Origin: Candidatus Saccharimonadota bacterium
GTDB lineage: Bacteria > Patescibacteriota > Saccharimonadia > Saccharimonadales > UBA4665
Length of the DNA stretch: 32,000 nucleotides
Direction: 5' to 3'
Assembly: GCA_016699955.1 (NCBI GenBank)
Contig: CP064993.1
Coordinates: 150,001 to 182,000, forward strand
Numbering within the stretch: the stretch's first letter is position 1; every line of letters starts with the position of its first letter. Below are positions 6,155 through 23,066 of this stretch, one piece after another. Below the pieces are notes generated by a model. That model did not search any database. It had not been told where the DNA came from and saw nothing but the letters and a program-made list of their open reading frames with translations. The translations under genes were made by a program, and so were the position numbers.

Positions 6155-6231
6155 GCGGGTGTAGCTCAGTTGTTTAGAGCGCGTCCTTGCCAAGGACGAG
6201 GCCAGGAGTTAGAGTCCCCTCACCCGCACCA
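6155..6231 (+). tRNA. tRNA-Gly (GCC), 77 nt with encoded CCA
   Basis: GCGGGTG TA GCTC AGTTGTTTA GAGC G CGTCC TTGCCAA GGACG AGGCC AGGAG TTAGAGT CCCCT CACCCGC A CCA. All four arms are present and the anticodon is GCC. The T-stem has one A.C mismatch, and the T-loop reads TTAGAGT instead of TTCGAGT. Confidence 0.8.
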
Positions 6232-6543
6232 AATATCTGAATTATGAGCCGAAAGGCTCTTTTTCTTTGCCTCAACAATGGTTTTAAAGGGGTCGTTTAG
6301 TATATAAGACAGCTTTTTGTCCTTTAGTTCAATGTTTGAAAGTACGTATTCTAGCAATTTCTGTCTTAGCCCCTCATCGCTCTCTTTAAACAGCTGGTCA
6401 GCCCGTTGAGCCAAGTCTAACAGGTAAGAAGCGGTTACTTGGAACTGCTTATTGTCGTTTGTTAGCAACTTTAGGCGGTCATTCAATTCCTGCTGTTTCT
6501 TTTCTAGCTCAGTTGCAATTTCATCGTGGAATGTCTGTGTAAT
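6220..6543 (-). pseudogene. C-terminal fragment of a recombinase-like gene (resembles the coiled-coil/C-terminal region of large serine recombinases), 5'-truncated
   Basis: The frame is open from 6543 with no plausible start: TQTFHDEIATELEKKQQELNDRLKLL...YLLDLAQRADQLFKESDEGLRQKLLEYVLSNIELKDKKLSYILNDPFKTIVEA...SDIWCG*. The last codons are the antisense of the tRNA-Gly 3' end and terminator. The frame is cut at 6543-6547 by the 96-nt repeat. The family call is from memory of the LF-x-S...LL-x2-VLSN-x2-L-x-(G/D)KKL-x-Y-x-L-x2-PF pattern. Confidence 0.4.
6246..6264 (+). terminator. Intrinsic terminator after tRNA-Gly
   Basis: GAGCC-GAAA-GGCTC followed by TTTTT. Confidence 0.5.
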
Positions 6544-6546
6544 TCA

Positions 6547-6642
6547 CCCGACCCGAAGCCGGTCGACCCTGGGAGACCGGTTGTCGTGACAGCGCATGAG
6601 CATCTGCGCTAGTCGACAAGGAGAGTCCCCTCACCCGCACCA
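6547..6642 (+). repeat. 96-nt partial copy of the 16579-16719 structured element, ending in the tRNA-Gly 3' 21-mer
   Basis: Identical to 16624-16719 except for 3 substitutions. Its last 21 nt (6622-6642) equal tRNA positions 6211-6231. Confidence 0.9.
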
Positions 6643-6653
6643 TACGCAATTTT

Positions 6654-6676
6654 GAGCCCGTTTAGGGCTCTTTTTT
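6654..6676 (+). terminator. Intrinsic terminator-like hairpin after the 96-nt repeat
   Basis: GAGCCC-GTTTA-GGGCTC followed by TTTTTT. Confidence 0.5.
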
Positions 6677-6803
6677 ATCTGTTAAAATCGGGTTTTAACA
6701 TCTCTAATTCCTAGCAAATGGAGACGAGACAGAAAAGCTAGAATGTAGGGCTATTAACAGAGAAGTCACTTGCAATATGGACAGGTTTTAACTCTTCAAT
6801 TTA

Positions 6804-6832
6804 TTGACATAAGTAATCATTAGTGCTATAAT
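6804..6832 (+). promoter_or_regulatory. Consensus sigma70-type promoter
   Basis: TTGACA (6804-6809), a 17-nt spacer and TATAAT (6827-6832). AGGAG lies 6 nt before the ATG at 6851. Confidence 0.55.
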
Positions 6833-6850
6833 TAAAAGATAGGAGATATT

Positions 6851-7207
6851 ATGACTTTAGATAAAGTTCACATTGTAGGTATGTCCGAAAATGGTAGCAC
6901 CTACTTAACTGTTGACGAATTTGAAGGTAAGGCAGTTAAGCCGCCCATTCAAGTAGTGCTTGAAGGTAAAGACGCTACTAGCGTTGCTGTTACCCAAGAC
7001 GCTCTCGCTGCTCGTTATGATGATGAAGAACTGTGTCAAATAGGTGAAGGTAGCTGGGTACTTGGACTCCAAAGAGTAATCGGCGAGATTGCTACTAATG
7101 GCAATCTAGAGTATGGCGCTACAAAGCCCTTGCATCCCAATCTCATTGATGCAGAAGTTGTAGCTTACGCAAAACTCCCTGCTTCCGTGTGTGAACTTAC
7201 GGCCTAG
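6851..7207 (+). CDS. Hypothetical protein (118 aa)
   Basis: ORF with a consensus promoter and Shine-Dalgarno sequence. No family was recognised. Confidence 0.6.
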   Translation: MTLDKVHIVGMSENGSTYLTVDEFEGKAVKPPIQVVLEGKDATSVAVTQDALAARYDDEELCQIGEGSWVLGLQRVIGEIATNGNLEYGATKPLHPNLIDAEVVAYAKLPASVCELTA

Positions 7208-7384
7208 TTGTTTAGTAATTTTCTAAGAAGTAACGTTTTACTTTCATAGCTAATAGCGCACCACTAAAATAACCGTATTCGTGGGTACGGATTGAACCAG
7301 AAGACAATAGCCCGAATGCTCAATGCTCACATGCGCATCTAGGGTCAGGGTTGTTGTATCAGCTAAAGAACGAGCAATTTTGAG

Positions 7385-7666
7385 CTACTTCCTAAAATCT
7401 AATAAATCCTCGGAGTCATTCCTTACTATTTTCTTTTTACGTGGGATCAACTTTGTGAAATAGGCGTAGGTTGATACTAGTACCTTCACGAATATTGCGA
7501 GTAGACAATAGATTGCAAGAAGGCCTAAGGCCGTGTTTGCGGTATCAATCCATGGTCCTTTAAAATTTTCTGTAATTATTGACCCGGCTAGGCCTATGGC
7601 AAAAACTGCAATAATCAAAACCCACCATGGAAGTAAGTTATACCAAGTAAGGCGATTATTTATCAT
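7385..7666 (-). CDS. Small membrane protein (93 aa, 2-3 TM helices)
   Basis: The hydrophobic segments LLPWWVLIIAVFAIGLAGSII and ALGLLAIYCLLAIFVKVLV are followed by a basic tail. The gene is divergent from the helicase gene. Confidence 0.5.
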   Translation of the reverse strand: MINNRLTWYNLLPWWVLIIAVFAIGLAGSIITENFKGPWIDTANTALGLLAIYCLLAIFVKVLVSTYAYFTKLIPRKKKIVRNDSEDLLDFRK

Positions 7667-7771
7667 GATAATATTATACCTCTCAATTATTCTTGTACAA
7701 TAATTCTTTTACTTAAGTCGTTGCGACGAAAGTTCTGATGTATAATTCGAGCAGAAACACCTTATCAATTT

Positions 7772-10700
7772 ATGGCAAAAATACCAATAACCATTAGTCA
7801 GCTAGCTAAATACGGACTTGATTATGTAAGTCTCATTTCAAGCAGTGCCTCAAGAAGTCGTCCAATTAAGACTGAACAGATGGACGCTGGGCTAGTATCT
7901 GCCCCAGACCTAATCTTCAAAGGAGAGACAGACAGTTTAACTATCAGCTTGGTTACATCGCTCGATAGACAGTTTGACCCAAATACGCTCGGTGAGGAAA
8001 AGAGCGACGAGCAACTACAGGCAGAACGTCGAGTTGAGCGTGATAGGGCGATATTTAATAGGTTCCAAGAAATCGACACGAAGATTAAGACCGACGAGTA
8101 CACGAAAAGGGTTGTATTTCAGACGGGCTTTATCTCATTTGAAGCAAAGCGTCTCAAGGAAAATGAGTTCAGCGATGATTATGAAAGTTATGAAGCACCA
8201 TTATTGCAGATTCCTGTAGCTGCAATAAACTTTAAATATACCAGTGACGGTGCAAATGTAATCATTGACTTGCCTGATAGCTATTTGGAAGTACTAACTG
8301 GCCCTCTTAAGAACTACTTGCCCCAGCAATATTTTGATAATGTCTTTAAATTTGTTGCCGATTCAGAAGCCGAAGGAAAGACAAGCCTTCCAGTGGAAGA
8401 TGATTTTATTGAAGATTTGTGGTCAGCAATCAGGGTGCAATTAGACCGAGTTGATGCCAAGGCGATATCAGAAAGCCCTGGTTTTGATACGAGTATAGTT
8501 GCCATTACAAACAAGACGAATCATTTCTTAGCCGAAGACTTAAGGGCCATTGCAACCCTAGAGGATGAAGACTTGCTAGAAACATCACTCGGTAGCTGGG
8601 TTTCAGACGAGGATATGGCAATTGAGCAAACCGTATCGGATGACGGCAGTACTGAGATATTCTTTCCTTTTGATTATGACAAGTACCAGCTCAAGGTGCT
8701 TGGGATAACTGCCAATAAGGCTGTTATCGTTGAGGGTCCTCCTGGTACTGGTAAATCTCAGACTATCTCGAACTTGCTAGTTCATTTAGCGGCTACTGGA
8801 AAAAGAGTATTGTTCGCTAGTCAAAAAGACCAAGCCATACGTGGCGTGAAGGATAAACTAAAAACTCTTGATGTGCCCTTTTTATTTGGTTATATTCCAG
8901 ACAAGACTTCGAAGTTGTATACAGCAGATGATGAGAAAGACAGTGCCGCCAATACTCTCATAGCGTTGAACCGAGAATTTCAAAAAGGCAAAGTCGGAGA
9001 CCTAAAAGAACCACTGGGCTTGCTTGTCGACCGTTCGAAGAATTTTGTAGAAAATATGAACATCGAACGTTCTCTTTATGCCCTGCACGAAGAGCGAAGA
9101 AGCCTTGGCTACTTAGATGCTTTCTATGATTATGGAATCAACTTAGAGTTTTATGGACAGTGTTTGGAATTTGAGAAAAACATTAGTGAGCTTAGTTCTA
9201 AAATTAAACAGTTTGAAGAGGCTCATAGTAAGTTTATAAAAATAGCCGACACTAAATTCAAGGACCTTAAAATAGACTATCAAGGTACGATTCCCTCTAC
9301 TGAGAGTATCTGCACATACTTCAAAGTAAATATGCCTGAGCGTTCTGGTTGGCTCGGCGGTAAGGTTAACGACATTAAGCTCCGAAGTGCGCTCAAGGAA
9401 CACTGTCGTGACATATTCCAAGAAATTTACGTAGAGTTTGAAAAGATATTATTCTCTGACAATACGAAGTCGGCTAAATTAAATATGCTAGATGGCGTAA
9501 AGGCATACTTCACATACTCCCTTGATAAAGAGACTCTATCCTATGTCTGCTCAGAGCTAGACAAACTCCTAGAGAGCAAAGATATGCCAGAGACAGTGTT
9601 GGCAAGCTTCAAAAAAGTTGTGAGTGAGCACGGTGGCGATAGCGAAGTATTTAAAGACCTTGATAGGTATAATGCAATCTCTGCTCAGATAGAAGAGGCG
9701 TCTCTTTATTCGGCCAACGAACTTAATCGTGAGATTAAGGATATTCGTAAGTTTTATAGGAAGAATGTCACAAACTATGTACGCAACCGAATATTGACAA
9801 GGGTTGGCGAGGCGAACAACAGCAAGGAACTTAGAGCTACGTTAGCCCAAGTTGCCAGAAGCCTAACCAAGAGCAAGAAAGCCAATAAGACATTTGATAG
9901 GTTGAAGCATAACGAGGACAACTTTAGTGCTATGTCAAAAGTAGTACCTATCTGGATGATGAGTCTGGATGACGTAAGCCGTATTGTGCCTCTAGAAATG
10001 AACGCTTTCGATTACGTTATTATCGACGAGGCTTCACAGTGTAACTTTGCATATGCGTTCCCAGCTATGTACCGTGCGGAACATACTATATTCTTTGGCG
10101 ATACGTTGCAGATGCGTGACGACAACATTATGTTCAAGTCAAATGACCAGCTTAGTGCTATAGCCAAAAAACATAAGATACCTGACGTATATCAGATTAA
10201 AGCCGAAGAAGACACTGTTAAGTCTGTGATGGACATAGCAAGCCTAAATGGTTTCAAGACTACCACTCTCAAATACCACTACCGTTCGCCTAAAGAGCTG
10301 ATTGGTTTTTCTAATACAGCGTTTTACGAGCCGATTGGTCGCAAGCTAGAGGCTGTTAATGATAATGTCGTCCCGTATAAAGACACTGGACGGGTCTTGC
10401 TTAACCATTTAGTTACTCCAAGTGATGACGAAGAAATAGGAAGCAAAACTAACCTTGCTGAGATACGAAGAATTCAGGAACTGGTTGAAGAGATTAAGAT
10501 CGACCCCGTTATTAAGGACAAGTCTATAGCTATATTGACATTCTTCAACGAGCAGGCGGAAGAGATACGTAATGTCATCAAAGATGAAGATATTAAAGTT
10601 GCAATTATTGACGGTATACAGGGAGATGAACGAGACATTGTAATTTACTCGTTTGTCATTAAAGACCCTAGTGATAAACGTCGGTATGTAAGCCGTACGG

Positions 10701-11635
10701 GCGAAGGCGGCGAAATAAACAAAGATATAGCTGCTGGACGAGTTAACGTGGCCTTTAGTCGTGCTCGGCTTCAGGTACACTGTGTAACCTCTCTTCCAAC
10801 AGAGCTGTGGCCTGACGGTATTTGGATTAAAAAGTATCTAGAGTATGTAGATAAAAATGGGGTACTATCCCGTCGACACAGTAAGTCTGAGCAACGTTTC
10901 GATTCTAATTTCGAAGAGCAGGTATTTAATTACCTATCTAGGGAATTGGGAGCAGATGAGTACACTGTGGAAACTCAAGCAGAATCTCTTGGCTTCAAGA
11001 TCGACCTAGTAGTTCATCATAAGGGCAAGAAGCTTGCAATTGAGTGTGATGGACCAACGCACTTCGAAGGCGGAGACGGTCAAGTTTATGTGCAGAACGA
11101 TTGGGAGCGTCAAGGTGCGTTAGAGGTCGCTGGATGGACCTTCTACCGCATATCATATTTCGACTGGGTTGATGACCAAGCAGAGGAAGAAAAGGCTCTA
11201 CTAGAGCATATAAAGCATTTCTTTGGCGAAGGACACTCTACAAGTAAGACGACTGTAGTTAAAGAACTTGAAAAAGAGACAGTCGCTCCTGAAGATGCTC
11301 CTAAAGACACTTACATAACAGACTTTTCTGATGAGCGTGTAGATAACGTAAGTCCAGTTAACGCTACACCAGCACCGACTGTTAATAAGGCTAAGACTTC
11401 AACCAAGAAAGAGTTTAGCGTTGGCGACCGAGGTGTTAATCAAGACGATTTTAGTAGGTATCTTCAGCCTCGTGCAAATGGGGTTATTAGAATGAGATAT
11501 CAAAGCGCTCGTGCTGGGAGTGCTGCTTACTGGCGTGATATCAAGTTGGTTAAATATGATGATACTTACCTATACGCTGAGGGCAACGACTACCCAATAA
11601 AATACCGTCGTGACCGTGTCATAGAGTTTAACTAG
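7772..11635 (+). CDS. SF1 (Upf1/Dna2-like, AAA_11/AAA_12) helicase with a DUF4011-like N-terminus, a DUF559/Vsr-like (MTES_1575-type) endonuclease domain and a WYL-like C-terminal domain
   Basis: Walker A is VEGPPGTGKSQT (nt about 8735-8758) and Walker B is YVIIDEASQC (about 10010-10040). Other helicase motifs are FFGDTLQM, LKYHYRS, IDGIQGDERDIVIYS and RVNVAFSRAR. The nuclease core is KIDLVVHHKGKKLAIECDGPTHF...GWTFYRISYFDW (about 10898-11170). The tail is IRMRYQSARAGSAAYWRDIKLVKYDDTYLYAEGNDYPIKYRRDRVIEF (about 11484-11632). Confidence 0.85.
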   Translation: MAKIPITISQLAKYGLDYVSLISSSASRSRPIKTEQMDAGLVSAPDLIFKGETDSLTISLVTSLDRQFDPNTLGEEKSDEQLQAERRVERDRAIFNRFQEIDTKIKTDEYTKRVVFQTGFISFEAKRLKENEFSDDYESYEAPLLQIPVAAINFKYTSDGANVIIDLPDSYLEVLTGPLKNYLPQQYFDNVFKFVADSEAEGKTSLPVEDDFIEDLWSAIRVQLDRVDAKAISESPGFDTSIVAITNKTNHFLAEDLRAIATLEDEDLLETSLGSWVSDEDMAIEQTVSDDGSTEIFFPFDYDKYQLKVLGITANKAVIVEGPPGTGKSQTISNLLVHLAATGKRVLFASQKDQAIRGVKDKLKTLDVPFLFGYIPDKTSKLYTADDEKDSAANTLIALNREFQKGKVGDLKEPLGLLVDRSKNFVENMNIERSLYALHEERRSLGYLDAFYDYGINLEFYGQCLEFEKNISELSSKIKQFEEAHSKFIKIADTKFKDLKIDYQGTIPSTESICTYFKVNMPERSGWLGGKVNDIKLRSALKEHCRDIFQEIYVEFEKILFSDNTKSAKLNMLDGVKAYFTYSLDKETLSYVCSELDKLLESKDMPETVLASFKKVVSEHGGDSEVFKDLDRYNAISAQIEEASLYSANELNREIKDIRKFYRKNVTNYVRNRILTRVGEANNSKELRATLAQVARSLTKSKKANKTFDRLKHNEDNFSAMSKVVPIWMMSLDDVSRIVPLEMNAFDYVIIDEASQCNFAYAFPAMYRAEHTIFFGDTLQMRDDNIMFKSNDQLSAIAKKHKIPDVYQIKAEEDTVKSVMDIASLNGFKTTTLKYHYRSPKELIGFSNTAFYEPIGRKLEAVNDNVVPYKDTGRVLLNHLVTPSDDEEIGSKTNLAEIRRIQELVEEIKIDPVIKDKSIAILTFFNEQAEEIRNVIKDEDIKVAIIDGIQGDERDIVIYSFVIKDPSDKRRYVSRTGEGGEINKDIAAGRVNVAFSRARLQVHCVTSLPTELWPDGIWIKKYLEYVDKNGVLSRRHSKSEQRFDSNFEEQVFNYLSRELGADEYTVETQAESLGFKIDLVVHHKGKKLAIECDGPTHFEGGDGQVYVQNDWERQGALEVAGWTFYRISYFDWVDDQAEEEKALLEHIKHFFGEGHSTSKTTVVKELEKETVAPEDAPKDTYITDFSDERVDNVSPVNATPAPTVNKAKTSTKKEFSVGDRGVNQDDFSRYLQPRANGVIRMRYQSARAGSAAYWRDIKLVKYDDTYLYAEGNDYPIKYRRDRVIEFN

Positions 11636-11644
11636 AATTTTACG

Positions 11645-12721
11645 TTAACTCTCTTGCAATTCTCTCAGTCTAGTAATCACGTAAAGCGATATTTCAATTG
11701 TCATATTTTTGGCAATTCGAGCATCTTCACGTCTAGATTTAATTCTGTGCGTACCATCATTGGACAGAAAGTGTCGATGAGACATGAGTAAGTCGGCCAT
11801 ATCCGTAGACAGAAGTCTTTTTTCTTTAAAGAACTTTGCTGCCTTCTCTGCATCCTTGCCGTCAATTTTTGTTGCTGGGTCTATAGACTTAGCAACTTGT
11901 TCGTAAAATCTTTCAGTGAAAGCACGTATTGCAGACATACAGTCTCTGTACTTCATAGGTGTATTAGCTTGCTCCACTAAATCAGATATGTGTCGCAAGG
12001 ATTCGCTCAGGTCCAAAGGAAAGCCAATACTTTCGATTTGTTCGACAACTCGTGCCTCGTCGGCATTCAACTCTGGGTTAAAGGCGGTGTCAATCTGACG
12101 AGCAAAATCACGAGTTAGCATTTCGTTAGTAGTAATGTAGAGCCTTCTTAAGGCCTTAGTAACATCTGTGTACAGACTACTGTATTCGTCAGCATCTTGA
12201 CCTAACTTAGACCTGCTTTGCATATAGTCGTCTGCGTAGTCCAGTAACCTTTCCGTGATATCAGAACCAAAAATATCTGGACGATGTCTTAGTGCCTGAA
12301 TAATGCAAAGGATGCTTTTTACGCAGGCACCATTATTGTTATATCCCACAAGGGTTTTGCATATATGGTCTAAGAGAATACCTGTGTTGCCCGTGTGCAC
12401 AAAATACAATGTAACAGCGTCAACTATACCGTCCGAGCCATTATTTTCTATGTACGACAGTAATAGTTGCTCAAATTCTTTTAACTCTCTGGCTGAAAGC
12501 TGCTGGGAAAGTTTTATTAACAATCCAGAGTGTTGATTGTTGAGCTGCCAGTCCTCTGGATTGTCGTCAATAAGACCTTTTATAGTACTGTCATCCAGTG
12601 GATAGCGTCCAGCATCTTCGGTAAGTGTATAGTTACTGACTTTGTTATCGCTGGCCTTTATGGCAGCGTTAGTCAGCAGCAGCTTAATCTTTTTTTTCAG
12701 TTTGTCGTCCATTGTTAACAT
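11645..12721 (-). CDS. Hypothetical protein with a DUF4145/HEPN-like C-terminal helical domain
   Basis: The preferred start is the ATG at 12721 (MLTMDDKLKKK); the TTG at 12784 is unlikely. The C-terminus AIRAFTERFYEQVAK...FFKEKRLLSTDMADLLMSHRHFLSNDGTHRIKSRREDARIAKNMTIEISLYVITRL resembles the DUF4145/Abi_C pattern (L-x-R-x2-(G)N-x3-H ... A ... helix). This is a weak, motif-level call only. Confidence 0.55.
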   Translation of the reverse strand: MLTMDDKLKKKIKLLLTNAAIKASDNKVSNYTLTEDAGRYPLDDSTIKGLIDDNPEDWQLNNQHSGLLIKLSQQLSARELKEFEQLLLSYIENNGSDGIVDAVTLYFVHTGNTGILLDHICKTLVGYNNNGACVKSILCIIQALRHRPDIFGSDITERLLDYADDYMQSRSKLGQDADEYSSLYTDVTKALRRLYITTNEMLTRDFARQIDTAFNPELNADEARVVEQIESIGFPLDLSESLRHISDLVEQANTPMKYRDCMSAIRAFTERFYEQVAKSIDPATKIDGKDAEKAAKFFKEKRLLSTDMADLLMSHRHFLSNDGTHRIKSRREDARIAKNMTIEISLYVITRLRELQES

Positions 12722-13117
12722 CTTAGCACTTGCGTGTATGTAAAAGAACTGATTGTGTTTATTGTCAAACAATATCCCCAACAAGCCTCTCCCAACAATC
12801 CTACCACTGTTAGTCGTTGGTCATTGTTGGGCTATTCTCAAAACATAGCTTTTTTATTTGTTGAGACATTTTTAGGTAGTTAGTGCGTTTACAACTACTC
12901 CTAGAAGTCTATGAGCTACGGGTACGGGGGTATATCAAGGCGTGTAAGTCTAGCTCGGCACAACCATACTCTTGTATTGGTTGTACGGTACGGCAAGTAT
13001 ATCTCTCCATCTTTGTATCTCTAACCTCAGTTGTGTGTAGTTATCCAAGCTAATTTGGTGTAAAAGTTTTTGGTCCTGCTGCACCATAGAAAATGTCGTT
13101 ACCACGTCTATACAAAA

Positions 13118-13146
13118 TTGACATAAGTTGTCGTAAGGTATATAAT
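13118..13146 (+). promoter_or_regulatory. Consensus sigma70-type promoter driving an apparently leaderless mRNA
   Basis: TTGACA (13118-13123), a 17-nt spacer and TATAAT (13141-13146). The ATG at 13154 is only 7 nt after the -10 box. Confidence 0.5.
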
Positions 13147-13153
13147 AATACTT

Positions 13154-13699: not shown

Positions 13700-13753
13700 A
13701 AACTGGCCACATAGCTAAAGAATCATCACCAAGGGTGGAAAACTCTACGTAAT

Positions 13754-13867
13754 CTACGCAGTTAGGTCGCCTGATAAATTAAATATCTCAACAAGATTAT
13801 TTAGCTTTTGGTCATCAACTTTCTGTGTTGCGGATGTTTGTAATACGTCAACTATGGTGCACCAATT
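13754..13867 (-). repeat. Conserved junction module, copy C: minus-strand coding-like remnant ending at a GCACCA core
   Basis: The minus frame reads NWCTIVDVLQTSATQKVDDQKLNNLVEIFNLSGDLTA*. It is homologous to 14747-14863. The GCACCA core is at 13859-13864. Confidence 0.6.
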
Positions 13868-13907
13868 AGACCCAAACGATTTTGAAACAGTATAGTTTCT
13901 AACATTT

Positions 13908-13929
13908 GAGCCTTTTGAAGGCTCTTTTT
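13908..13929 (+). terminator. Intrinsic terminator-like hairpin
   Basis: GAGCC-TTTTGAA-GGCTC followed by TTTTT. Confidence 0.45.
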
Positions 13930-13943
13930 GTTATGATTGGTTT

Positions 13944-16449: not shown

Positions 16450-16549
16450 CACAAAACGTTCTAGATTGGCCGAAGATGGTGACTTCATTAAACGGAGTCA
16501 CCATTTTCATTGTGAGAGTCGTTGTGTTTTTGTGCTCCATGAAAAGAGT

Positions 16550-16578
16550 CTTGCCCGATTGGGCAGGGCTTTATTCTT
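16550..16578 (+). terminator. Terminator-like hairpin after the 15148 gene
   Basis: CTTGCCC-GATT-GGGCAGG (one G.U pair) followed by the T-rich GCTTTATTCTT. Confidence 0.4.
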
Positions 16579-16719
16579 GGTGCAGGGCTAGTAGGGACTC
16601 TAACGGCTTTGCCAGTGGCAAAGCCCGACCCGAAGCCGGTCGACCTTGGGAGACCGGTTGTCGTGACAGCGCATGAGCATCTGCGCTCGTCGACAAGGAG
16701 AGTCCCCCCACCCGCACCA
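16579..16719 (+). ncRNA. Unclassified GC-rich structured RNA-like element with a tRNA-Gly-like 3' terminus
   Basis: Closing helices are GGTGC(A)GGG/CCCGCACC and GGGACTCT (16594-16601)/AGAGTCCC (16699-16706). Internal hairpins are GGCTTTGCC-AGT-GGCAAAGCC, CCGGTC-N10-GACCGG and AGCGCA-N8-TGCGCT. It is visibly more GC-rich than its surroundings and is followed by a strong terminator at 16733-16753. No Rfam family was recognised. Confidence 0.35.
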
Positions 16720-16758
16720 AATGAGGACTTTCGGACACTTCGGTGTCCTTTTTCTTTG
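16714..16758 (+). repeat. 45-nt exact repeat: core plus flank plus terminator (copy 2)
   Basis: Identical to 14855-14899. Confidence 0.9.
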
Positions 16759-16812
16759 CCATGCGAAGTCATATCTCATCACTTCTTTTAATATCTGCCA
16801 CTGGTTTTCTTT

Positions 16813-17241
16813 ATGACAAATAATAATTCTCTTCAGGACCTTCTCGCGACACTGGATGATATCACATTAAAAGATAGCAAAATACTTCTTGAGATAATGC
16901 AGCGTATAAGCGCTGCCGAACCTAAAATATGGAATGAACATACTATAGGTTTTGGTACATATCACTACAAATACGACAGCGGGCGCGAAGGCGACAGTCA
17001 AATTCTTAGTTTTTACCCAAGAAAGGGTAGGATTACCGTTTACCTGATGGACGGTACGGCACGCTATTCCGTGCTACTGGATAAGCTGGGCGGTCACAGT
17101 CCTACTGGTTACTGCATCGTGATTAAACGACTTAGTGATATAGAATTACCTGTACTTGAGGAGATTTTGCAGCAGTCTTATGAGTACATCAAGTCAATGT
17201 CACAGAAGGGACCTATCAACAGAATATTATGGAAAAATTAA
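16813..17241 (+). CDS. DUF1801 (YdhG-like) domain protein
   Basis: KIWNEHTIGFGTYHYKYDSGREGDSQILSFYPRKGRITVYL is typical of DUF1801. Confidence 0.7.
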   Translation: MTNNNSLQDLLATLDDITLKDSKILLEIMQRISAAEPKIWNEHTIGFGTYHYKYDSGREGDSQILSFYPRKGRITVYLMDGTARYSVLLDKLGGHSPTGYCIVIKRLSDIELPVLEEILQQSYEYIKSMSQKGPINRILWKN

Positions 17242-17263
17242 AAATGAACATCGTGGAAGGTAA

Positions 17264-17428
17264 TTAGTAAATAATCTTTTCACAATTCTCCATTCCATTT
17301 TGGATCAGGACACCCATATTGGGCGCCGATAAACGACCGCCCTCAGTCAGCCATTCAAAAAGTTTAAGTAAATTCTCTGTAAAGGTGCGCCAAACAGGGA
17401 TAGCGGGACGCTTATTTGCCCTGTTATT
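17264..17428 (-). pseudogene. Start-less remnant resembling the C-terminal part of a class I methyltransferase
   Basis: The minus frame between stops reads NRANKRPAIPVWRTFTENLLKLFEWLTEGGRLSAPNMGVLIQNGMENCEKIIY*. A related remnant lies at 18193-18300. Confidence 0.3.
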
Positions 17429-17483
17429 TTATTATTAGCAGTGATTCAATATATAATGTGAAAATAACTAAGGAGTATCCGCT

Positions 17484-18125
17484 ATGGCAACAAAAAAAGA
17501 TAAGTATCCGGCCACTTTTGATATAGATTATCCGAAAAAACTTGACCGTCTGAGTACTTTTTTTCGTATCGTATGGAGTATCCCTGCGATAATCATCATT
17601 AGCATGCTGACAGCATCTGGTAGCGAGCGGCTCATGAACGAAGCGGGCCAGGAAGTTTCTACGGGCGGTGGTGGCATTGCGGCTGGACTGTTTTGTGCTA
17701 CTGCCCTGATGATTCTTTTCCGCCAGCGTTATCCACGATGGTGGTTTGATTTTGCGCTCGAACTAAACAGATATTCATCTAGAGTCGGTGCTTACATTCT
17801 CCTGCTAACTGATCGTTACCCTTCCACCGTTGAAAAGCAATCAGTCCAGTTGGACATAGAGTACCCAAATGTTGAGCGAGATCTTAATCGTTGGTTGCCA
17901 TTGGTAAAGTGGTTGCTAGCTATACCTCATTATTTTGTATTGTTCATTCTTGTAATTGCTGCCTCAGTAGCGACTGTCATTGGCTGGTTTAGCATACTCT
18001 TTACCGGTCAATACCCCAGGAGTTTATTTAACTTTGTGGTTGGGGTGGGCAGATGGGGTGTTCGAGTCACTGCTTATGCGTTTTTGCTAACAACCGATGA
18101 ATATCCACCGTTTAGGCTTCGATAA
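17484..18125 (+). CDS. DUF4389 domain membrane protein
   Basis: Duplicated modules ...LSTFFRIVWSIPAIIII...RYPRWWFDFALELNRYSSRVGAYILLLTDRYPS and ...LLAIPHYFVLFIL...GQYPRSLFNFVVGVGRWGVRVTAYAFLLTTDEYPPF. AAGGAG lies 8 nt upstream of the ATG. Confidence 0.8.
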   Translation: MATKKDKYPATFDIDYPKKLDRLSTFFRIVWSIPAIIIISMLTASGSERLMNEAGQEVSTGGGGIAAGLFCATALMILFRQRYPRWWFDFALELNRYSSRVGAYILLLTDRYPSTVEKQSVQLDIEYPNVERDLNRWLPLVKWLLAIPHYFVLFILVIAASVATVIGWFSILFTGQYPRSLFNFVVGVGRWGVRVTAYAFLLTTDEYPPFRLR

Positions 18126-18192
18126 CATCCGCTGAACCAGTAGATTGTCTGATAACCCAAAGATTTGATCAATATGTTGTAACTTCTTATAG

Positions 18193-18300
18193 CTATGTTC
18201 TATGTCGTCGATTATATCTAGGGGGTGACAGTAGGCTAAAAAGCCGACCACTCACCAGACATTCAAAAAGTTTATAACTCTGCACCAATAGGACTGTCAG
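18193..18300 (-). pseudogene. Second start-less methyltransferase-like remnant
   Basis: The minus frame reads LTVLLVQSYKLFECLVSGGRLFSLLSPP.... It shares KLFE-x-L-x2-GGRL with 17264-17428, and the DNA core cattcaaaaagttta is identical. Confidence 0.3.
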
Positions 18301-18426
18301 TTATTAAGCCTATTTTTGGGAAGAATTTTACAGACAAAAACCTGGGCAAAGGATAGAGTATAAAGAGCTTCAGGTGTTAAACCTATTAAGAGCACGTAAC
18401 TTTAACGAAAAAAAGGGGTAAATGAA

Positions 18427-18807
18427 ATGGCTAAATACATTGATGGATTTGTACTTGTAATACCTAAAGGCAAAGAAGCCGAATACCAGAAAATGGCAGA
18501 AGAAGGGCGTGATTCATGGATGAAGCATGGTGCACTTCAGTACTTTGAGTGCAGAGGCGAAGATCTTAAGCAGCAGGAAATGGGTGACCTAAAATCACGA
18601 GCTTTTCAGGAGATGGCTGGCGCTAACGGGGATGATAATGTCTGGTTTTCATTCATTGTTTTCGAATCAAAAGAGCACCGCGACGAAGTAAACAAAAAAG
18701 TTATGGACGAAATGAGCGAATTGTATAAGGATAAAACTGATTTTGAAATGCCGAACGATATGAAAAAAATGGCATACGGCGGATTTGAAGTGGTAGTTGA
18801 AGGTTAA
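18427..18807 (+). CDS. DUF1428 (YbaA-like) protein
   Basis: MAKYIDGFVLVIPKGKEAEYQKMAE...WFSFIVFESKEHRDEVNKKVM...MAYGGFEVVV is collinear with E. coli YbaA-type proteins. Confidence 0.8.
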   Translation: MAKYIDGFVLVIPKGKEAEYQKMAEEGRDSWMKHGALQYFECRGEDLKQQEMGDLKSRAFQEMAGANGDDNVWFSFIVFESKEHRDEVNKKVMDEMSELYKDKTDFEMPNDMKKMAYGGFEVVVEG

Positions 18808-18976
18808 AGGGCTTTTTTATTAGTCTGACTCTAGAGTCTTACCGCTGTCCAAAAGCAAAGGTAAAAATTGCCGGTGGCAGTTAGTTATCCACATTTCGTT
18901 AAGTGATGGTATATACTAGACAGGCGGTATAATAAAACAAGTTACGCATTAACAATCAATTTAAGAGGAGGCCGAC

Positions 18977-19168
18977 ATGGTTACAGGATACTGCGTTAAA
19001 TGTAAGGAAAAAGGCGTTGAATTGTCAGCACCAGAGATTGTCAAAACTAAAACAGGTGGTTTCATGGCCAAGGGCAAGCATGAAAAATGCGGAACTACAG
19101 TTTGCGCAATGATGTCTAAGGAAAATGCCGAAAAAGCAGTAGAAGCCGGCGCAAAAAAAGCCTACTAG
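18977..19168 (+). CDS. Small zinc-ribbon protein, DUF5679-like
   Basis: GYCVKCKEKGVEL...KGKHEKCGTTVC has paired CxxC-like motifs. AGAGGAGG lies 6 nt upstream of the ATG. Confidence 0.6.
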   Translation: MVTGYCVKCKEKGVELSAPEIVKTKTGGFMAKGKHEKCGTTVCAMMSKENAEKAVEAGAKKAY

Positions 19169-19207
19169 ACCTCAAGGCACGAAAATCTAATCAGTAACCG
19201 TATGCTG

Positions 19208-19247
19208 CCACACTATGAAAAACCAGTCCTTGTGGCTGGTTTTTTCA
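19208..19247 (+). repeat. Junction/terminator repeat (copy 1) related to the flank of the tRNA-derived minihelix
   Basis: ccacactatgaaaaaccagtccttgtggctggttttttca compared with 22981-23018 caccatgaaaagtccactccttgtggctggttttttca. It contains AACCAG-N9-CTGGTT followed by TTTTT. Confidence 0.75.
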
Positions 19248-19386
19248 CGGTCTATCTTGAACCCCTAGCTCCTGGCCGAATAAAATATTTATCACCAGGA
19301 GTAGCTCTTGCCCACATGGCTGGTCATTATTACAGTTACTCTGACCGACACCGTCCTTGCTGTCCGTTTTTGATATAGTTAAGTTT

Positions 19387-20025
19387 ATGAAAGAAACTCT
19401 AGGCATACTAGCCGTTATCGTTGGCTTCATCGGATATATCCCTTATTTCCGCACAATTTTTAGTGGAAAGACTAAGCCTCATGCATTCAGTTGGCTGGTG
19501 TGGGGGACTCTAACGGGTATTGCGTTTGTTAGCCAAGTTGCTGGCAATGGTGGGGCTGGGGCCTGGGTAACTGGCTTCACCGCGCTGATTAGCTTTACAA
19601 TATTTGGCCTTGCTCTGTTTAAGGGTGTTAAAGATTTTCCTCTTACTGACTGGCTGTGCCTCGCCGGAAGTATAATTGCTATTGCGTTGTGGGCACTCAC
19701 TAAGAATCCATTGATAGCAGTCGTGTTGATCACGATAATTGATTTCGTGGCATTCCTTCCTACAATTCGTAAGTCCTATTCTGAGCCGAACTCTGAACCT
19801 ATATTCACCTACTCGCTGAGCGGCCTCAAGTTCTTGATTGGGATCATAGCGCTCACTGAGCTGTCATGGCTAACAGTGTTATATCCCGCCTCATTAGTTA
19901 TGGCTAACGGAGGATTTGTGGTGATGTTGCTTATACGAAGAAATAAACTGGCTCAGGAGCAGTCATCTCTTGCGTTGAGTCCCCTCACCCGCTCCAAAGT
20001 GACACAACAGAGGACACATCGCTAA
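19387..20025 (+). CDS. Polytopic membrane protein (about 6 TM) whose 3' end runs into a tRNA-Gly 3'-end repeat
   Basis: The preferred start is the ATG at 19387 (MKETLGILAVIVGF...). The last codons ...SLALSPLTRSKVTQQRTHR* are encoded by the 19977-19996 repeat and its flank. Confidence 0.55.
   Translation: MKETLGILAVIVGFIGYIPYFRTIFSGKTKPHAFSWLVWGTLTGIAFVSQVAGNGGAGAWVTGFTALISFTIFGLALFKGVKDFPLTDWLCLAGSIIAIALWALTKNPLIAVVLITIIDFVAFLPTIRKSYSEPNSEPIFTYSLSGLKFLIGIIALTELSWLTVLYPASLVMANGGFVVMLLIRRNKLAQEQSSLALSPLTRSKVTQQRTHR
19977..19996 (+). repeat. Copy of the tRNA-Gly 3' end (19 of 20 nt)
   Basis: gagtcccctcacccgcTcca compared with tRNA 6212-6231 gagtcccctcacccgcAcca. Confidence 0.85.
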
Positions 20026-20076
20026 GGCGTGGCGTTTTTGACATAACCTTATAATTTCATCTGTTATTATACATTC

Positions 20077-20799
20077 ATGAAAGATAAAATTATCGTAATT
20101 ACTGGTGCAAGCGAAGGCCTGGGCAAAGCTGCTGCGGCTAAACTAGCCCAAGAGGGTGCAAAATTAGTTTTAGTTGCACGCAACGAGGAAAAGCTTAAGC
20201 AAGTGAGTGAACAGATGGGCGAAAATACTCGATATTACGTGTGTGATGTGGGTGTCCCCGCCCAAGTTAGGGAAGTAGCAAGCAAGATATTAGACGAGTA
20301 CGAGTCAATAGATATCCTTATTAACTGTGCTGGTATATGGACAGACGAAGAGCTGGAGAAGAACGATGCTGATCGACGCAAGAGAGTTCTCGAAGTAAAC
20401 ACACTCGGAACAATTGAGTTCATAAAAGCCTTTGAGCCATCACTAAGAGCCAACAACAAAGGCCATGTCTTGAATGTGATATCTACCTCAGGAAACTTTG
20501 ATACAAGCTCTGGCGACAATACGTTGTGGCAAACTTACGGCGCAAGTAAATGGGCACTGTCTGGGTTTACTCGCGCATTTAAAGATTCTCTTGAGGGAAC
20601 CAGGGTTAAAGTTACCGGCTTCTACCCTGGTGGCTTTGATAGTAACTTGTATGAAAATGCGAATGTTCCAGACGCACACAACCAACCGTGGATGATGAAA
20701 ACTGATGATGTGGCAGACGCGCTGATATTTTGTCTGACTCGACCAGACGATATGCTCGTTGAAAAGCTCATTGTTACGAAGTTCGGTGCCGATAGTTAG
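20077..20799 (+). CDS. Short-chain dehydrogenase/reductase (SDR) family oxidoreductase
   Basis: Carries VITGASEGLGKA (TGxxxGxG), NCAG and YGASKWAL (YxxxK). Confidence 0.85.
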   Translation: MKDKIIVITGASEGLGKAAAAKLAQEGAKLVLVARNEEKLKQVSEQMGENTRYYVCDVGVPAQVREVASKILDEYESIDILINCAGIWTDEELEKNDADRRKRVLEVNTLGTIEFIKAFEPSLRANNKGHVLNVISTSGNFDTSSGDNTLWQTYGASKWALSGFTRAFKDSLEGTRVKVTGFYPGGFDSNLYENANVPDAHNQPWMMKTDDVADALIFCLTRPDDMLVEKLIVTKFGADS

Positions 20800-20835
20800 A
20801 TACAAGTACGTTTTAACCTCTGTTATGATATAGGT

Positions 20836-21771
20836 ATGAAAATAGTTCTTCCTGACAAAATCAATATCTCTAGTGATTACAAAAATATGATTAGAGAACT
20901 GGGAGCAGAGGTCTTTGAGGACTTACCTGATAACAACGAGCTTAAGAAGCGAATTGCTGATGCTGAAATTATCACAGCTAGTTATGTAGATATTACACCT
21001 GATGTAATTGACGCTGCACCAAATCTCAGATATATTGTTGTGCCTGCTGTTGGGTTTGAATGGGTTGATACTAAATACGCTGCGTCTAAGGGTATAACAA
21101 CGCTTAATTGCCCAACTTTTAATAGTCAGGCTGTTGCCGAACACGCAATGACATTACTCATGGCTGCAAATCGCAATCTGATAGTAGGCATAGACGAGCT
21201 ACGAGCTGGCAAGTGGAGTCCCCAAACTTTGATTGGCTACGAACTTGATAGCAAAAAACTAGGTTTGATTGGCTACGGAAATGTCGGTACAAGAATAGAA
21301 AAAATCTCAATTGGACTCGGTATGAGCGTCAGTTATACAAACTCAAAATCAACATCTGACGAGGTAGATGAACTGCTTAGTAGCTCTGACTTTATTATTA
21401 TCTGCGCCCCGTTAAATGACGGCACAAGAAACTTAGTTGATGACCGCCGATTAAAGCTTCTGAAACAAACTGCAATACTAGTCAATGTTGGACGTGGTGC
21501 AGTTATTGACCAAAATGCACTAATTGAACTACTAAAAAATAAAATGATACGAGGTGCGGGGCTAGATGTATTTGACGGCGAGCCGCTAACAGGGGTACCT
21601 AGCGATGAGATAGTTGAGCTGGCAAGGCTACCGAATGTCGTAACTACCCCACATATTGCCTATAACACAGAAGAAATTAACGACAAACAAGGTGCAGAAA
21701 TACTGTTAAACCTGCAATCGTGCATAGCTGGTGAGCCAGTCAATGTTGTTATGCAGGGCAGTGCAAAGTGA
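20836..21771 (+). CDS. D-isomer-specific 2-hydroxyacid dehydrogenase family protein (NAD-binding)
   Basis: Carries LGLIGYGNVGTRI (GxGxxG), VNVGRGAVID and TPHIAYNT. Confidence 0.85.
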   Translation: MKIVLPDKINISSDYKNMIRELGAEVFEDLPDNNELKKRIADAEIITASYVDITPDVIDAAPNLRYIVVPAVGFEWVDTKYAASKGITTLNCPTFNSQAVAEHAMTLLMAANRNLIVGIDELRAGKWSPQTLIGYELDSKKLGLIGYGNVGTRIEKISIGLGMSVSYTNSKSTSDEVDELLSSSDFIIICAPLNDGTRNLVDDRRLKLLKQTAILVNVGRGAVIDQNALIELLKNKMIRGAGLDVFDGEPLTGVPSDEIVELARLPNVVTTPHIAYNTEEINDKQGAEILLNLQSCIAGEPVNVVMQGSAK

Positions 21772-21783
21772 GTGGAATGAATA

Positions 21784-22686
21784 ATGGCTAATAAGAGGCC
21801 CCTTTCAGCACCAGTCGGCGCAAGCCTCATTGTTTTGTCGTCGTTTTTCTATGCCAGTTACGGTATTTGGACAAAGCTAATGGGCGACTTCTTTCAAGGC
21901 TACACAGCTTCGGCTCTGCGAAGTGTGTTGGTACTTCTTATCCTATTACCTATTGCCCTTTTCTATCGGCACTTACAGCCACTAAAGCTAAAGCAAAATT
22001 GGCGGTACATAGCTGGAATGCTCATTGCTTCATTGTTTACTTGGGGACCGTTATACTACGCAATCTTACATGCAGGAGTCGGTATAAGTCTGGCTATTGT
22101 GTATGCAAGCATTGTTATTGGTTCATTCTTTTTTGGCTGGCTATTTGGTCGGGAACGGTTTACGAAAGATAAAGCTATATCTGCTGGATTAGGCGTAATT
22201 GGACTGGGGCTAATCTTTTCCCCAAGCACAGGCAGTTTAGGCTGGCTAGCACTACTAGGAGCTTTGGTTAGCGGTCTATCTGCTGGTGCAAACGCTGTTT
22301 TTTCTAAGCAGATACGGTACAACGCTACTCAATCAACTATTGTTCTATGGGTTACGTCAGTAATAGCAAACTTTGTTATGGCTTTTGCGCTTCAAGAACA
22401 TTATCCAGAAGTTGGCTGGTATGCTCCCTGGCTGTGGCTTGTTTTCTTTGCAGTTGCTTCGGTTATTGCGTCTTGGTCACTTGTAAAGGGAGTAAAGCTC
22501 ATAGATGCTGGCGCAGCAGGTGTTTTAGGATTATTAGAAATTGTGTTTGGCGTAATCTTCGGAGTTATATTCTTTCACGAACGACCAGCAGCAATAGCAT
22601 TGCTTGGAATGGCTGTAATAATTGGTGCGGCTTCCATACCGTACTTTAAAGACTATAACGCTAAGCGTGGGACATTAGATGAGTAA
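21784..22686 (+). CDS. EamA/DMT-family transporter
   Basis: About ten hydrophobic helices arranged as two EamA-like halves, in a 300-aa protein. Confidence 0.75.
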   Translation: MANKRPLSAPVGASLIVLSSFFYASYGIWTKLMGDFFQGYTASALRSVLVLLILLPIALFYRHLQPLKLKQNWRYIAGMLIASLFTWGPLYYAILHAGVGISLAIVYASIVIGSFFFGWLFGRERFTKDKAISAGLGVIGLGLIFSPSTGSLGWLALLGALVSGLSAGANAVFSKQIRYNATQSTIVLWVTSVIANFVMAFALQEHYPEVGWYAPWLWLVFFAVASVIASWSLVKGVKLIDAGAAGVLGLLEIVFGVIFGVIFFHERPAAIALLGMAVIIGAASIPYFKDYNAKRGTLDE

Positions 22687-22950
22687 AGTTCAGAAGGAAG
22701 AAACGGTTAGTCCAAAAGTGCAAACACCTGAAACTGAAACAGGGAGAGGTATTGTTGAGCCAGGTAGGCAATTTGTAGCAGACTTTTATAATCAATTGGC
22801 AGAGGCAACGAGTCCGTATGTCGAGGGTGCAAGTTAGCATAGTCTATATTACCTAAGCAGGAACACAAGTGCTTATTTGTACTGTACAATTTTACAATTT
22901 CTAAGGGGTAACGTTTTACTTTCGTAGCTGGAGTTACTAAATTGGCGACA

Positions 22951-22985
22951 GCGGGGTAAGAGTAGGGTTCTCCTAACCCGCACCA
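22951..22985 (+). other. tRNA-Gly-derived 35-nt acceptor/T-arm minihelix with encoded CCA (internally deleted pseudo-tRNA or displaced att remnant)
   Basis: GCGGGGT AAGAG TAGGGTT CTCCT AACCCGC A CCA, i.e. a 7-bp acceptor-like stem (one mismatch), a 5-bp T-like stem (one mismatch) and a 7-nt loop. It is followed by a hairpin and T-run at 22990-23016. Confidence 0.5.
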
Positions 22986-23066
22986 TGAAAAGTCCACTCC
23001 TTGTGGCTGGTTTTTTCATATACATGCCCATATTCTAGAATGAAAGTGTCGCAGAGACTGGGGCTT

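Follow-up and report, generated by a model that had tools for sequence, protein, structure and literature searches.

A probable accretion island at a Saccharibacteria tRNA-Gly gene, with putative large serine recombinase scars and structured elements that copy tRNA ends

Introduction

In staphylococci, staphylococcal cassette chromosome (SCC) composite islands form at rlmH (orfX) through Ccr large serine recombinases, and many of their units carry no recombinase (pseudo-SCC). Islands at tRNA genes grow by accretion of integrative and conjugative elements (ICEs) and cis-mobilizable elements (CIMEs), as with ICESt1/ICESt3, where the enzymes are tyrosine integrases and the sites are 20–50-nt identity blocks; class I tRNA integrases were reportedly described by Williams in 2002. 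In SSV1-type integrases the attachment core lies within the coding sequence, and integration-dependent immunity of mycobacteriophages is said to have been reported by Broussard et al. in 2013. Bacteria of the Candidate Phyla Radiation (CPR), Saccharibacteria among them, have tiny genomes, and to our knowledge there has been little work on their mobile elements. Here we analyse 32,000 nt of a Candidatus Saccharimonadota genome (assembly GCA_016699955.1, contig CP064993.1, positions 150,001–182,000 of the forward strand; hereafter the window, with position 1 as its first letter), in which an island of about 16.8 kb (~6232–22985) lies at the 3′ end of a tRNA-Gly gene.

The island is a tRNA-anchored accretion island, a known kind of structure, here in a CPR bacterium. 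It appears to resemble SCC in that a large serine recombinase (LSR) targets a conserved gene at its 3′ end, units accrete in tandem and leave more than one direct repeat of the core, many units are recombinase-less and the cargo is mixed; it differs in that the target is a tRNA 3′ end, the phage-type attachment site (attP) would lie inside the recombinase open reading frame (ORF), copies resembling the chromosomal site (attB) come from a structured element, and the host belongs to the CPR. As in tRNA-gene islands, direct repeats of the 3′ part of the tRNA bound the units, the element regenerates the tRNA and non-autonomous units are kept, whereas the working core here is 6–7 nt and the recombinase is of the serine type. 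Phage–ICE tandems have also been described (PMC13651849). Like the SSV1-type and mycobacteriophage cases, the locus has a core in coding sequence and an integration that alters the C terminus of the product, but here the gene encodes a serine recombinase, about 36 C-terminal codons are exchanged for Gly-stop, and the system is known from sequence alone. Our literature searches found no description of it. We put at roughly 70% the probability that units accumulated in tandem at a hotspot at the tRNA-Gly 3′ end, driven by LSRs and with structured elements supplying the longer copies of the tRNA end. The unusual features would then be serine recombinases with attP in their own ORF, a selected C-terminal recombinase fragment, and a new structured element that multiplies the landing site.

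Copies of the tRNA-Gly 3′ end punctuate an AT-rich island

The tRNA-Gly(GCC) gene, called by both ARAGORN and Rfam, occupies 6155–6231 on the plus strand behind a sigma-70-type promoter (TTGCAA-17-TATAAT, 6113–6141, plus strand); its last six nucleotides (6226–6231) are the putative att core, GCACCA. Its final 21 nt, the 21-mer AGAGTCCCCTCACCCGCACCA, recur on the plus strand at 6622–6642 (21/21, no mismatch), 16699–16719 (20/21, one mismatch) and 19976–19996 (19/21, two mismatches), where 100 shuffles gave an expectation of zero copies. A fifth, diverged tRNA end, also on the plus strand, belongs to repeat family D3 (22960–22985) and ends at 22985. The copies at 6622 and 16699 close a 96-nt repeat (D2; 6547–6642 and 16624–16719, 97% identity). 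Reading the intergenic regions directly, we found at least six further junctions, again on the plus strand, that are reduced to GC[ACG/T]CCA and followed by a hairpin and T-run. They lie at 7256–7263, 13859–13864, 14855–14860 and 18282–18287 (GCACCA in the last three), 16534–16539 (GCTCCA) and 17387–17392 (GCGCCA), with a doubtful one near 19205–19213. Terminator-like hairpins stand 3′ of copies at 6246, 6654, 13908, 14874, 16545, 16733 and 20020, and a hairpin with a T-run (22989–23018) follows the outermost copy. GC content is 42.8% in 6232–22985 and 49.4% and 49.1% in the flanks, a drop of about 6.5 points.

Much of this had been proposed in a first-pass annotation of the window. Its claims of at least four same-orientation recurrences of the tRNA end, of hairpins with T-runs behind them and of AT-richness, judged by eye for 6.6–14.9 kb, were all borne out; its third copy, given as 19 of 20 nt at 19977–19996, needed only its extent corrected. 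It had also assigned to the GCACCA cores at 13859 and 14855 the downstream flank of 16714, which holds for 14855 (48 nt, 98%) and fails for 13859.

An exact-match search with the 21-mer across GTDB, each species represented by one genome, gave 103 stretches, nearly all from Saccharibacteria metagenome-assembled genomes (MAGs). Each stretch has one to three occurrences, located at the tRNA-Gly locus wherever the stretch includes the tRNA. Ninety matches fall inside tRNA-Gly genes and 21 outside called ones; several of these 21 are tRNAs cut at the edge of a stretch, most of the rest lie closely downstream of tRNA-Gly, and a few are in stretches without a compatible tRNA-Gly gene in the slice. 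Among the first 80 entries listed, the complete or chromosome-level genomes CP064992.1, OZ246406.1 and OY970322.1 have one matching stretch each. A generic genome-wide repeat was rejected on these counts, in keeping with the first-pass view that the repeat is tied to tRNA-Gly. The tRNA 3′-end direct repeats, all in the orientation of the tRNA, bound the units of the island. Different genes stand behind tRNA-Gly at every locus examined, and their content and order differ in every genome examined, in a comparison of more distant relatives.

Several junctions carry arms of an LSR family

Directly beside the tRNA, on the minus strand, lies an ORF (6220–6543) for residues ~390–498 of a 498-aa LSR, with 99% amino acid identity to locus L098; it represents the left (P′) end of an LSR-type element. 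Its stop codon is inside the tRNA 3′ end, the terminator at 6246–6259 is embedded in its coding sequence, and window positions 6155–6543 are 98.5% identical to L098. The full-length protein of L098 has Resolvase, Recombinase and zinc-ribbon domains at the same site, where the window has residues ~390–498 only; the window holds derivatives of LSR elements and not an autonomous member. An intact LSR occupies the same tRNA-Gly position in L098, in L076 and, among 41 metagenome loci, in most of those that include the tRNA. In the 41 loci returned by a metagenome scan with the 498-aa protein, the gene ends ...IWCG* inside the tRNA-Gly(GCC) 3′ end wherever the stretch includes the tRNA. A separate scan of viral contigs with the LSR gave no relatives, and therefore no sign of phage; a PDB sequence search with the LSR gave no match.

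The other end of the element could be read from relatives. In L108rc, L138rc and L140rc, a stretch that begins with the LSR (or its C-terminal part, LSR-C) terminates in ...GTTTGAAATGCGTCAACTATGNTGCACCA; behind it come the native terminator, a small structured element and the 21-mer of the host genome's own tRNA, reproduced perfectly. The window arms at 13768–13865 and 14764–14861 are of the same family (repeat D5), with just 71% DNA identity between the two. Translation of the arms on the minus strand, beginning at TGGTGC (Trp-Cys), gives WC-xIVD(A/V)(F/L)QT..(D/E)DYKLKHL..F(N/Q)LS..*, a tail peptide conserved in five arms from four genomes. Since these arms encode the tail of the LSR, attP would lie inside the recombinase ORF. 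Joining the window's right end at 13864 to its left end at 6232 in silico gives one in-frame ORF. LSR-C plus tail, searched against proteins, had 238 matches, the best of which are 136–162-aa ORFs with both parts contiguous. Such contiguous ORFs occur between cargo blocks in L145 and L146, as expected at the boundary of two tandem units, and amid housekeeping genes in L148.

Comparison of the site types gave a single shared sequence, GCACCA(A), present in the attB-like site (tRNA plus native flank, as in L055), attL (tRNA plus LSR end, window 6226–6260), attR (arm plus flank, window 13840–13880, L108rc and L138rc) and attP-like sites (arm plus LSR end, L146 and L148). A weak dyad surrounds it by eye (TCAACTAT-GCTG-CA-CCAA-ATATCTGA). 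We infer that the crossover falls within GCACCA(A) and not in the 21-mer. The GCACCA-only junctions would then be attR-type scars of LSR elements, with a left arm that encodes the last ~36 LSR codons. A left-end remnant of 39 nt with a terminator (D7, 98%) follows both the GCACCA at 14860 and the element arm at 16719. The D10 arms (7220–7251 and 22898–22929) hold a different conserved reading frame, SYESKTL..LR, which at 7263 continues from TGGTGC, and this hints at another recombinase family arranged in the same way. The LSR family is seen to act at this site in relatives, and would by extension have been the driver in the window.

Some LSR copies (L128:10001–11551, L110, L115 and L116) do not adjoin a tRNA and have other short tails after ...IWC. 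The L128 sequence behind TGGTGC is similar to the D5 arm, with a frameshift; this copy, on an 86-kb contig, may represent the attP state or a differently integrated element.

A recurrent C-terminal recombinase fragment

The LSR gene breaks within a few nucleotides after ...CTGTGTAAT (codon ~390, ...GR|ITQTFHDE). The breakpoint is shared by the window (6543/6544), L134, L135, L136, L137, L138/L140, L139, L141 and L142, with unrelated sequence beyond it in each. The window has the middle of a class-A structured element (see below) as its partner, whereas L135 and L138 have a CsoR-type copper cassette, assigned by eye and supported by a Pfam Trns_repr_metal match to the equivalent L146 gene. L135 and L138 have this partner in common, yet their dS is 0.30 (dN/dS 0.14). 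Among truncated copies of LSR-C, dN/dS is 0.02–0.16, as among intact genes, and none of the best 120 of the 238 protein matches to LSR-C plus tail extends beyond 228 aa. Because the breakpoint recurs, dN/dS is low, L135 and L138 have diverged and no long match appears among the best 120, the fragment looks like a selected module. Thus the truncated recombinase of the first-pass annotation is the C terminus of an LSR that is intact in relatives, and these comparisons argue that it is a recurrent selected ORF of ~110–143 aa and not mere debris. It could possibly act as a regulator of recombination. An AlphaFold2 model of the 143-aa ORF had a predicted local distance difference test score (pLDDT) of 47 and was unusable.

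The same breakpoint zone recurs in many unrelated contexts (the window, L134–L142, L148 and proteins P0001–P0120), and the att core, as TGGTGC, immediately precedes the break in L148 and P0001. We considered the breakpoint as a pseudo-att site and rejected it, the likeness to the P arm being too weak (9/16 nt by eye). In other Saccharibacteria (L138rc, L135rc, L146, L145 and L032), LSR-C-bounded units at tRNA-Gly repeatedly carry copper and metal modules (CsoR-type repressor, DUF305 and P-type ATPase).

The tRNA-Gly gene is chimeric

In the T-stem of the window tRNA the 5′ strand AGGAG faces a 3′ strand CCCCT, which leaves an A·C mismatch, flagged as a non-canonical pair in the Rfam result. 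It is the sole T-stem mismatch among 115 tRNA-Gly(GCC) genes; the other 114 stems are perfect, and in them AGGAG always pairs with CTCCT. The missing partner is found at the far end of the island. The outermost copy, a minihelix-like hairpin at 22951–22985 on the plus strand (identified through repeat family D3 and comparison with tRNA-Gly), reads GCGGGGT-AAGAG-TAGGGTT-CTCCT-AACCCGC-ACCA and carries CTCCT, the match for the tRNA's AGGAG, in its 3′ half (22965–22985). To judge from its sequence, this copy is a displaced or native-type tRNA 3′ end that marks the right edge of the island. In other genomes the right arms follow their host tRNA exactly; together with the native strand at the outermost copy, this points to an imported 3′ end in the present tRNA. 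On this evidence there must also have been an exchange, homologous or specific to the T-loop, on the 5′ side of the LSR core.

The tRNA-Gly(GCC) of this lineage, in the window and at all loci, has a D-loop without GG (AGTTGTTTA) and the T-loop TTAGAGT, with A for C at position 56. The motif TTAGAG is present in both D- and T-loop, and structured cores join the tRNA pieces exactly there.

Structured elements copy the ends of adjacent tRNAs

The longer copies of the tRNA end belong to small structured elements. A complete class-A element (16540–16719, plus strand; fold z = −4.65, with covariation) comprises a bidirectional terminator (16545–16572), a left arm (~16579–16602) in which the tRNA 3′ end is repeated in inverted and diverged form, the complement of the T-loop included, three hairpins within ~16606–16692 (hairpin 1 at 16606–16624), and a right arm (16699–16719) that matches 20 of 21 nt. 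The 3′ 96 nt of a second class-A element (6547–6642, plus strand), consisting of hairpins 2–3 and the 21-mer copy as right arm, are 97% identical to 16624–16719 and fused to the LSR-C ORF at 6543/6547. In general the elements are ~140–180 nt long and consist of a terminator, an inverted 3′ part of the tRNA, one to three covarying hairpins and the last 18–21 nt of the tRNA; their identity to the tRNA always begins at T-loop nucleotide 56 (GGGGTT|AGAG). Units of the same kind, 149–185 nt, stand directly 3′ of tRNA-Gly in L010, L015, L023, L055, L061, L066 and L077, and L090 has two in tandem. Class A also occurs 3′ of tRNA-Leu(UAA) in L071, L044 and L014, with arms that match that tRNA. A class-B core was found in at least 28 places. 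It adjoins tRNA-Gly, -Val and -Leu genes, in one case lies near tRNA-Phe, and invariably takes its arms from the adjacent tRNA.

Covariation in both classes is extensive. Compensatory changes affect 24 of the 31 class-B pairs, with 95.6% of cells paired; none of 500 shuffles reached this level, and slid controls had 28–45% of cells paired. Of 37 class-A pairs, 18 show compensatory changes, including arm–arm pairs that switch with the type of tRNA. Conserved G·U pairs far outnumber A·C pairs, which points to the plus strand as the selected single strand. Rfam returned tRNA only (window and six element-carrying loci, E ≤ 1), ARAGORN found no tmRNA or permuted tmRNA in the window, and a covariance-model search for the class-B core found only a hairpin-1 remnant there. 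The element would thus be a previously undescribed structured family. It resembles tRNA minihelices and tRNA-like structures (the tRNA-like domain of tmRNA, YrlA) in having a helix of acceptor and T-stem 3′ strands that ends in CCA, and the copy at 22951–22985 looks like tRNA-Gly with nucleotides 8–48 deleted; the differences are that it has no Rfam match, its CCA is predicted to be paired, and the left arm is a true inverted copy with the T-loop complement. Checked against miniature inverted-repeat transposable elements (MITEs), the element has inverted arms; no flanking duplication was seen, and the arms match the adjacent Gly, Val or Leu tRNA. Arms that match whichever tRNA adjoins would not be expected of a transposase-defined end.

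The element lies distal to the LSR attR in L108rc, L138rc and L032 and stands alone beside the tRNA in genomes without an insert, and therefore appears to predate the LSR integrations. Its right arm and terminator would recreate an attB-like site. Behind the element's 21-mer in L108rc (at 18428) stands a second LSR-like sequence, with 80% identity to window 6201–6525, and in the window a left-end remnant directly follows the right arm at 16719, from which we infer that an LSR-type unit integrated there. The first-pass annotation had taken the 21-mer copies at 6622 and 16699 for simple attR scars; they are instead 3′ arms of a covarying element that is also present 3′ of tRNAs without an island.

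A related arrangement lies upstream of the tRNA. At 15 loci, shortly before the real tRNA, the initial 25 nt of tRNA-Gly lead into a class-B core that has its own promoter. In L063, L018 and L014 this promoter has the sequence of the window's tRNA-Gly promoter, which in the window runs straight into the tRNA without a class-B unit. The conserved unit consists of these 25 nt, a three-hairpin class-B core of ~88 nt and an anticodon-arm-like CCTTGCCAGGCCAAGGA, with a ~45–75-nt spacer and then the real tRNA behind it (L065:2870–3000, L063, L018, L014, L102, L009, L016, L061, L069, L035, L100, L107, L108 and L118). A pseudo-tRNA-Val in L011 (2722–2875) is built of the 5′ two-thirds of tRNA-Val, a class-B core and a palindromic, degenerate T-arm. 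The real tRNA-Val comes a short way downstream and is itself followed by two tandem elements with the tRNA-Val 3′ end.

Proposed history and alternatives

We propose the following history. The attP core, GCACCA(A), would form the Trp-Cys codons on the other strand inside the recombinase ORF, which in the attP state would read ...SDIWC-xIVDAFQT...DYKLKHL..FNLSG*. Integration at the terminal GCACCA of the tRNA would place the body of the recombinase gene beside the tRNA, so that the ORF ends ...IWCG* within it; the last ~36 codons would be swapped for Gly-stop from the tRNA, the tail would become the right-end arm, and the terminator embedded in the LSR coding sequence would then serve the tRNA. 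Repeated events would leave a series of arm, GCACCA and terminator junctions, with recombinase-less units moved in trans or fixed by deletion. The 21-mer copies at 6622 and 16699, as right arms of structured elements, would each recreate an attB-like site behind which LSR units could land. At least one exchange in the T-loop region, homologous or site-specific, would have given the tRNA a 3′ end of foreign type in place of its native one, and a fragment of ~110–143 aa would have been kept by selection, possibly as a regulator of recombination. The first annotation's view that foreign units accreted at this tRNA end is upheld; several junctions have arms that equal the right ends of LSR elements elsewhere, and the chimeric tRNA has its native strand at the far end. 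The serial integration of that account is retained, whereas simple decay does not suffice as the whole story. Part of its foreign cargo, namely DUF1428, DUF5679 and a 222-aa membrane gene, consists of common tRNA-Gly neighbours in other Saccharibacteria, where their order is shuffled.

Several points weigh against this history. The swapped T-stem strand lies beyond what an LSR crossover in GCACCA can produce and calls for another mechanism besides, and the crossover position itself is deduced solely from the common core and the weak dyad symmetry. No N-terminal LSR part or intact recombinase is present anywhere in the window, and therefore nothing there moves by itself. We found no circular form, the contigs with a contiguous LSR-C plus tail ORF lacking terminal overlap, and no empty-site relative of this genome. 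Several junctions keep just 6 nt, and some could be due to chance; the copy at 19976 has no recognizable arm; and the DUF1428, DUF5679 and membrane genes, frequent neighbours of tRNA-Gly, may have belonged to the ancestral locus and not have been acquired.

We weighed three other explanations. The repeated tRNA ends might be functional 3′ modules, made of structured RNA, a tRNA-like 3′ end and a terminator, that close native operons in a vertically inherited region. Strong covariation and the G·U strand bias towards a selected single plus strand speak for such modules, as do the placement of elements at the ends of plus-strand gene units with terminators after them, the several genes that are common neighbours of tRNA-Gly, and the related promoter-driven core of other genomes. 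We nevertheless regard this as unlikely, given the LSR ORF that abuts the tRNA, the tail-coding arms at GCACCA junctions, the GC drop of ~6.5 points, the chimeric tRNA, a gene order that differs in every genome examined, and the small elements of the window, which have no promoter of their own. Less probable again is that most of the island arrived in one or a few steps of homologous recombination, for example by natural transformation, with the tRNA as anchor and the repeats already present in the donor. The chimeric T-stem does demand an exchange 5′ of the LSR core, the tRNA and LSR-C are 98.5% identical to those of a distant MAG, and the 21-mer and structured elements would supply homology; but the LSR arms and cores mean that serial site-specific events are still needed somewhere, and a native-type 3′ end kept at the far edge fits insertion better than replacement.

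Least probable, in our judgement, is an integron-like platform in which the structured elements are folded single-stranded sites resembling attC, the tRNA end serves as attI and cassettes are shuffled singly. Several features resemble such a platform: the cassettes have one to three genes and all face the same way, the elements between them are imperfect inverted repeats with conserved ends and variable interiors whose structure is conserved over sequence, the same small genes stand behind tRNA-Gly in differing orders across genomes, and L090 has tandem element-only units. Unlike attC sites, the elements have arms that copy the 3′ end of the neighbouring tRNA and a multi-hairpin interior. The Pfam scans of island ORFs contained no IntI-type tyrosine recombinase or integrase family, the recombinase present is of the serine type (we know of no single-stranded substrates for serine recombinases), the cassettes have their own consensus promoters, and many junctions are just an LSR-type arm and GCACCA with no hairpin element.

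Within the history of LSR-driven accretion, a more ambitious version is at best tentative. It holds that an undescribed family of ~90–140-nt structured cores, grafted on tRNA pieces (a 5′ piece upstream, inverted and direct 3′ copies downstream), multiplies the landing site and so creates an integron-like platform served by serine recombinases with attP in their own ORF, with the LSR-C fragment as a selected trans-acting regulator. The downstream form of the core occurs at tRNA-Gly, -Val and -Leu; one near tRNA-Phe is less clear-cut. If these proposals hold, the locus illustrates how epibionts gain defence, metal-resistance and metabolic genes at one tRNA, offers a candidate serine-integrase attB/attP pair with a 6–7-nt core for genome engineering, and adds a structured nucleic-acid family that copies tRNA ends; were the C-terminal fragment to regulate recombination, it would be a new layer of control for serine integrases.

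Cassettes and flanking sequence

Most units of the island carry no recombinase. In the cassettes of L032, L077, L029, L073, L089 and L002 no recombinase was found among the listed ORFs by tblastn with the LSR or by eye, a search that included no Pfam scan. The first cassette (6643–7263, plus strand), whose flank at 6643–6700 is homologous to that after the last element in L090 and L034, contains a terminator (6654–6670), a consensus promoter (6804–6832), a 118-aa ORF (6851–7207) and the first D10 arm (7220–7251), and is closed by the junction GCGCACCA at 7256–7263. A cargo block (7264–13864, plus strand), delimited with Pfam, PADLOC and repeat D5, follows with a 93-aa ORF (minus strand), a helicase-nuclease (7772–11635), a 379-aa ORF (minus strand) and a 181-aa ORF; it ends in a D5 arm (13754–13864) with the LSR tail encoded on the minus strand and GCACCA at 13859–13864. 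The helicase-nuclease, of 1287 aa, matched the PADLOC candidate PDC-S37 (6.8e-72) and Hhe. Next, on the plus strand, comes a cassette (13865–14860) with a terminator (13908–13924), a 268-aa ORF (13944–14750) and the second D5 arm (14747–14860, GCACCA at 14855–14860); the left flank of this cassette has homologues among the flanks of L077 and L032. Behind it, a plus-strand cassette (14861–16539) holds the 39-nt LSR-type left-end remnant with its terminator (D7 copy 14852–14899), a promoter (15080–15109), a 433-aa ORF (15148–16449) and GCTCCA at 16534–16539.

Beyond the complete class-A element, the second LSR-type left-end remnant with terminator (16720–16758, plus strand; D7, 98%), which parallels L108rc 18428, precedes two one-gene plus-strand cassettes (16759–18287) with Pfam matches to DUF1801 (16813–17241) and DUF4389 (17484–18125). 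Each closes in a related arm (CATTCAAAAAGTTTA..) followed by GCGCCA (17387–17392) or GCACCA (18282–18287). The next stretch (18288–19996, plus strand) comprises DUF1428 (18427–18807), DUF5679 (18977–19168), the 222-aa membrane ORF (19357–20025) and the 21-mer copy at 19976–19996; each of the three heads the genes behind tRNA-Gly in at least one other genome, in shuffled order. It also contains a degenerate class-B-like remnant (~18815–18900, with the hairpin-1 remnant at 18854–18889), a terminator (19218–19247) and, at ~19248–19352, a sequence that by eye resembles a class-C element. A metabolic and transport cassette (19997–22950, plus strand) of SDR (20077–20799), 2-hydroxyacid dehydrogenase (20836–21771) and EamA transporter (21784–22686) genes and the second D10 arm (22898–22929) completes the island. 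The 118-, 93-, 379-, 181-, 268- and 433-aa island ORFs had no Pfam match.

Promoters with a perfect 12/12 sigma-70 consensus lie at 6804–6832, 13118–13146 and 23259–23287; the first two have the extended sequence ATTGACATAAGT.. in common and head different cassettes. The island is flanked on the left by an apiosidase-like glycoside hydrolase (GH) and on the right by a GT2/deacetylase, an amino-acid kinase and a GH26-like protein. Between tRNA-Cys (955–1028, minus strand) and tRNA-Gly we observed interleaved direct repeats (1080–1209/2972–3101, 130 nt, 98%; 2136–2173/6067–6104, 38 nt, 95%) and a 20-nt inverted repeat (2263–2282/2952–2971) that brackets a 204-aa ORF. The two tRNAs are only ~250–270 nt apart in L063, L018 and L014, and the DUF4922/GH block may therefore be inserted as well. 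On the other side of the island, 28793–28918 consists of two tandem 63-nt copies, 78% identical, within a 264-aa ORF on the minus strand.

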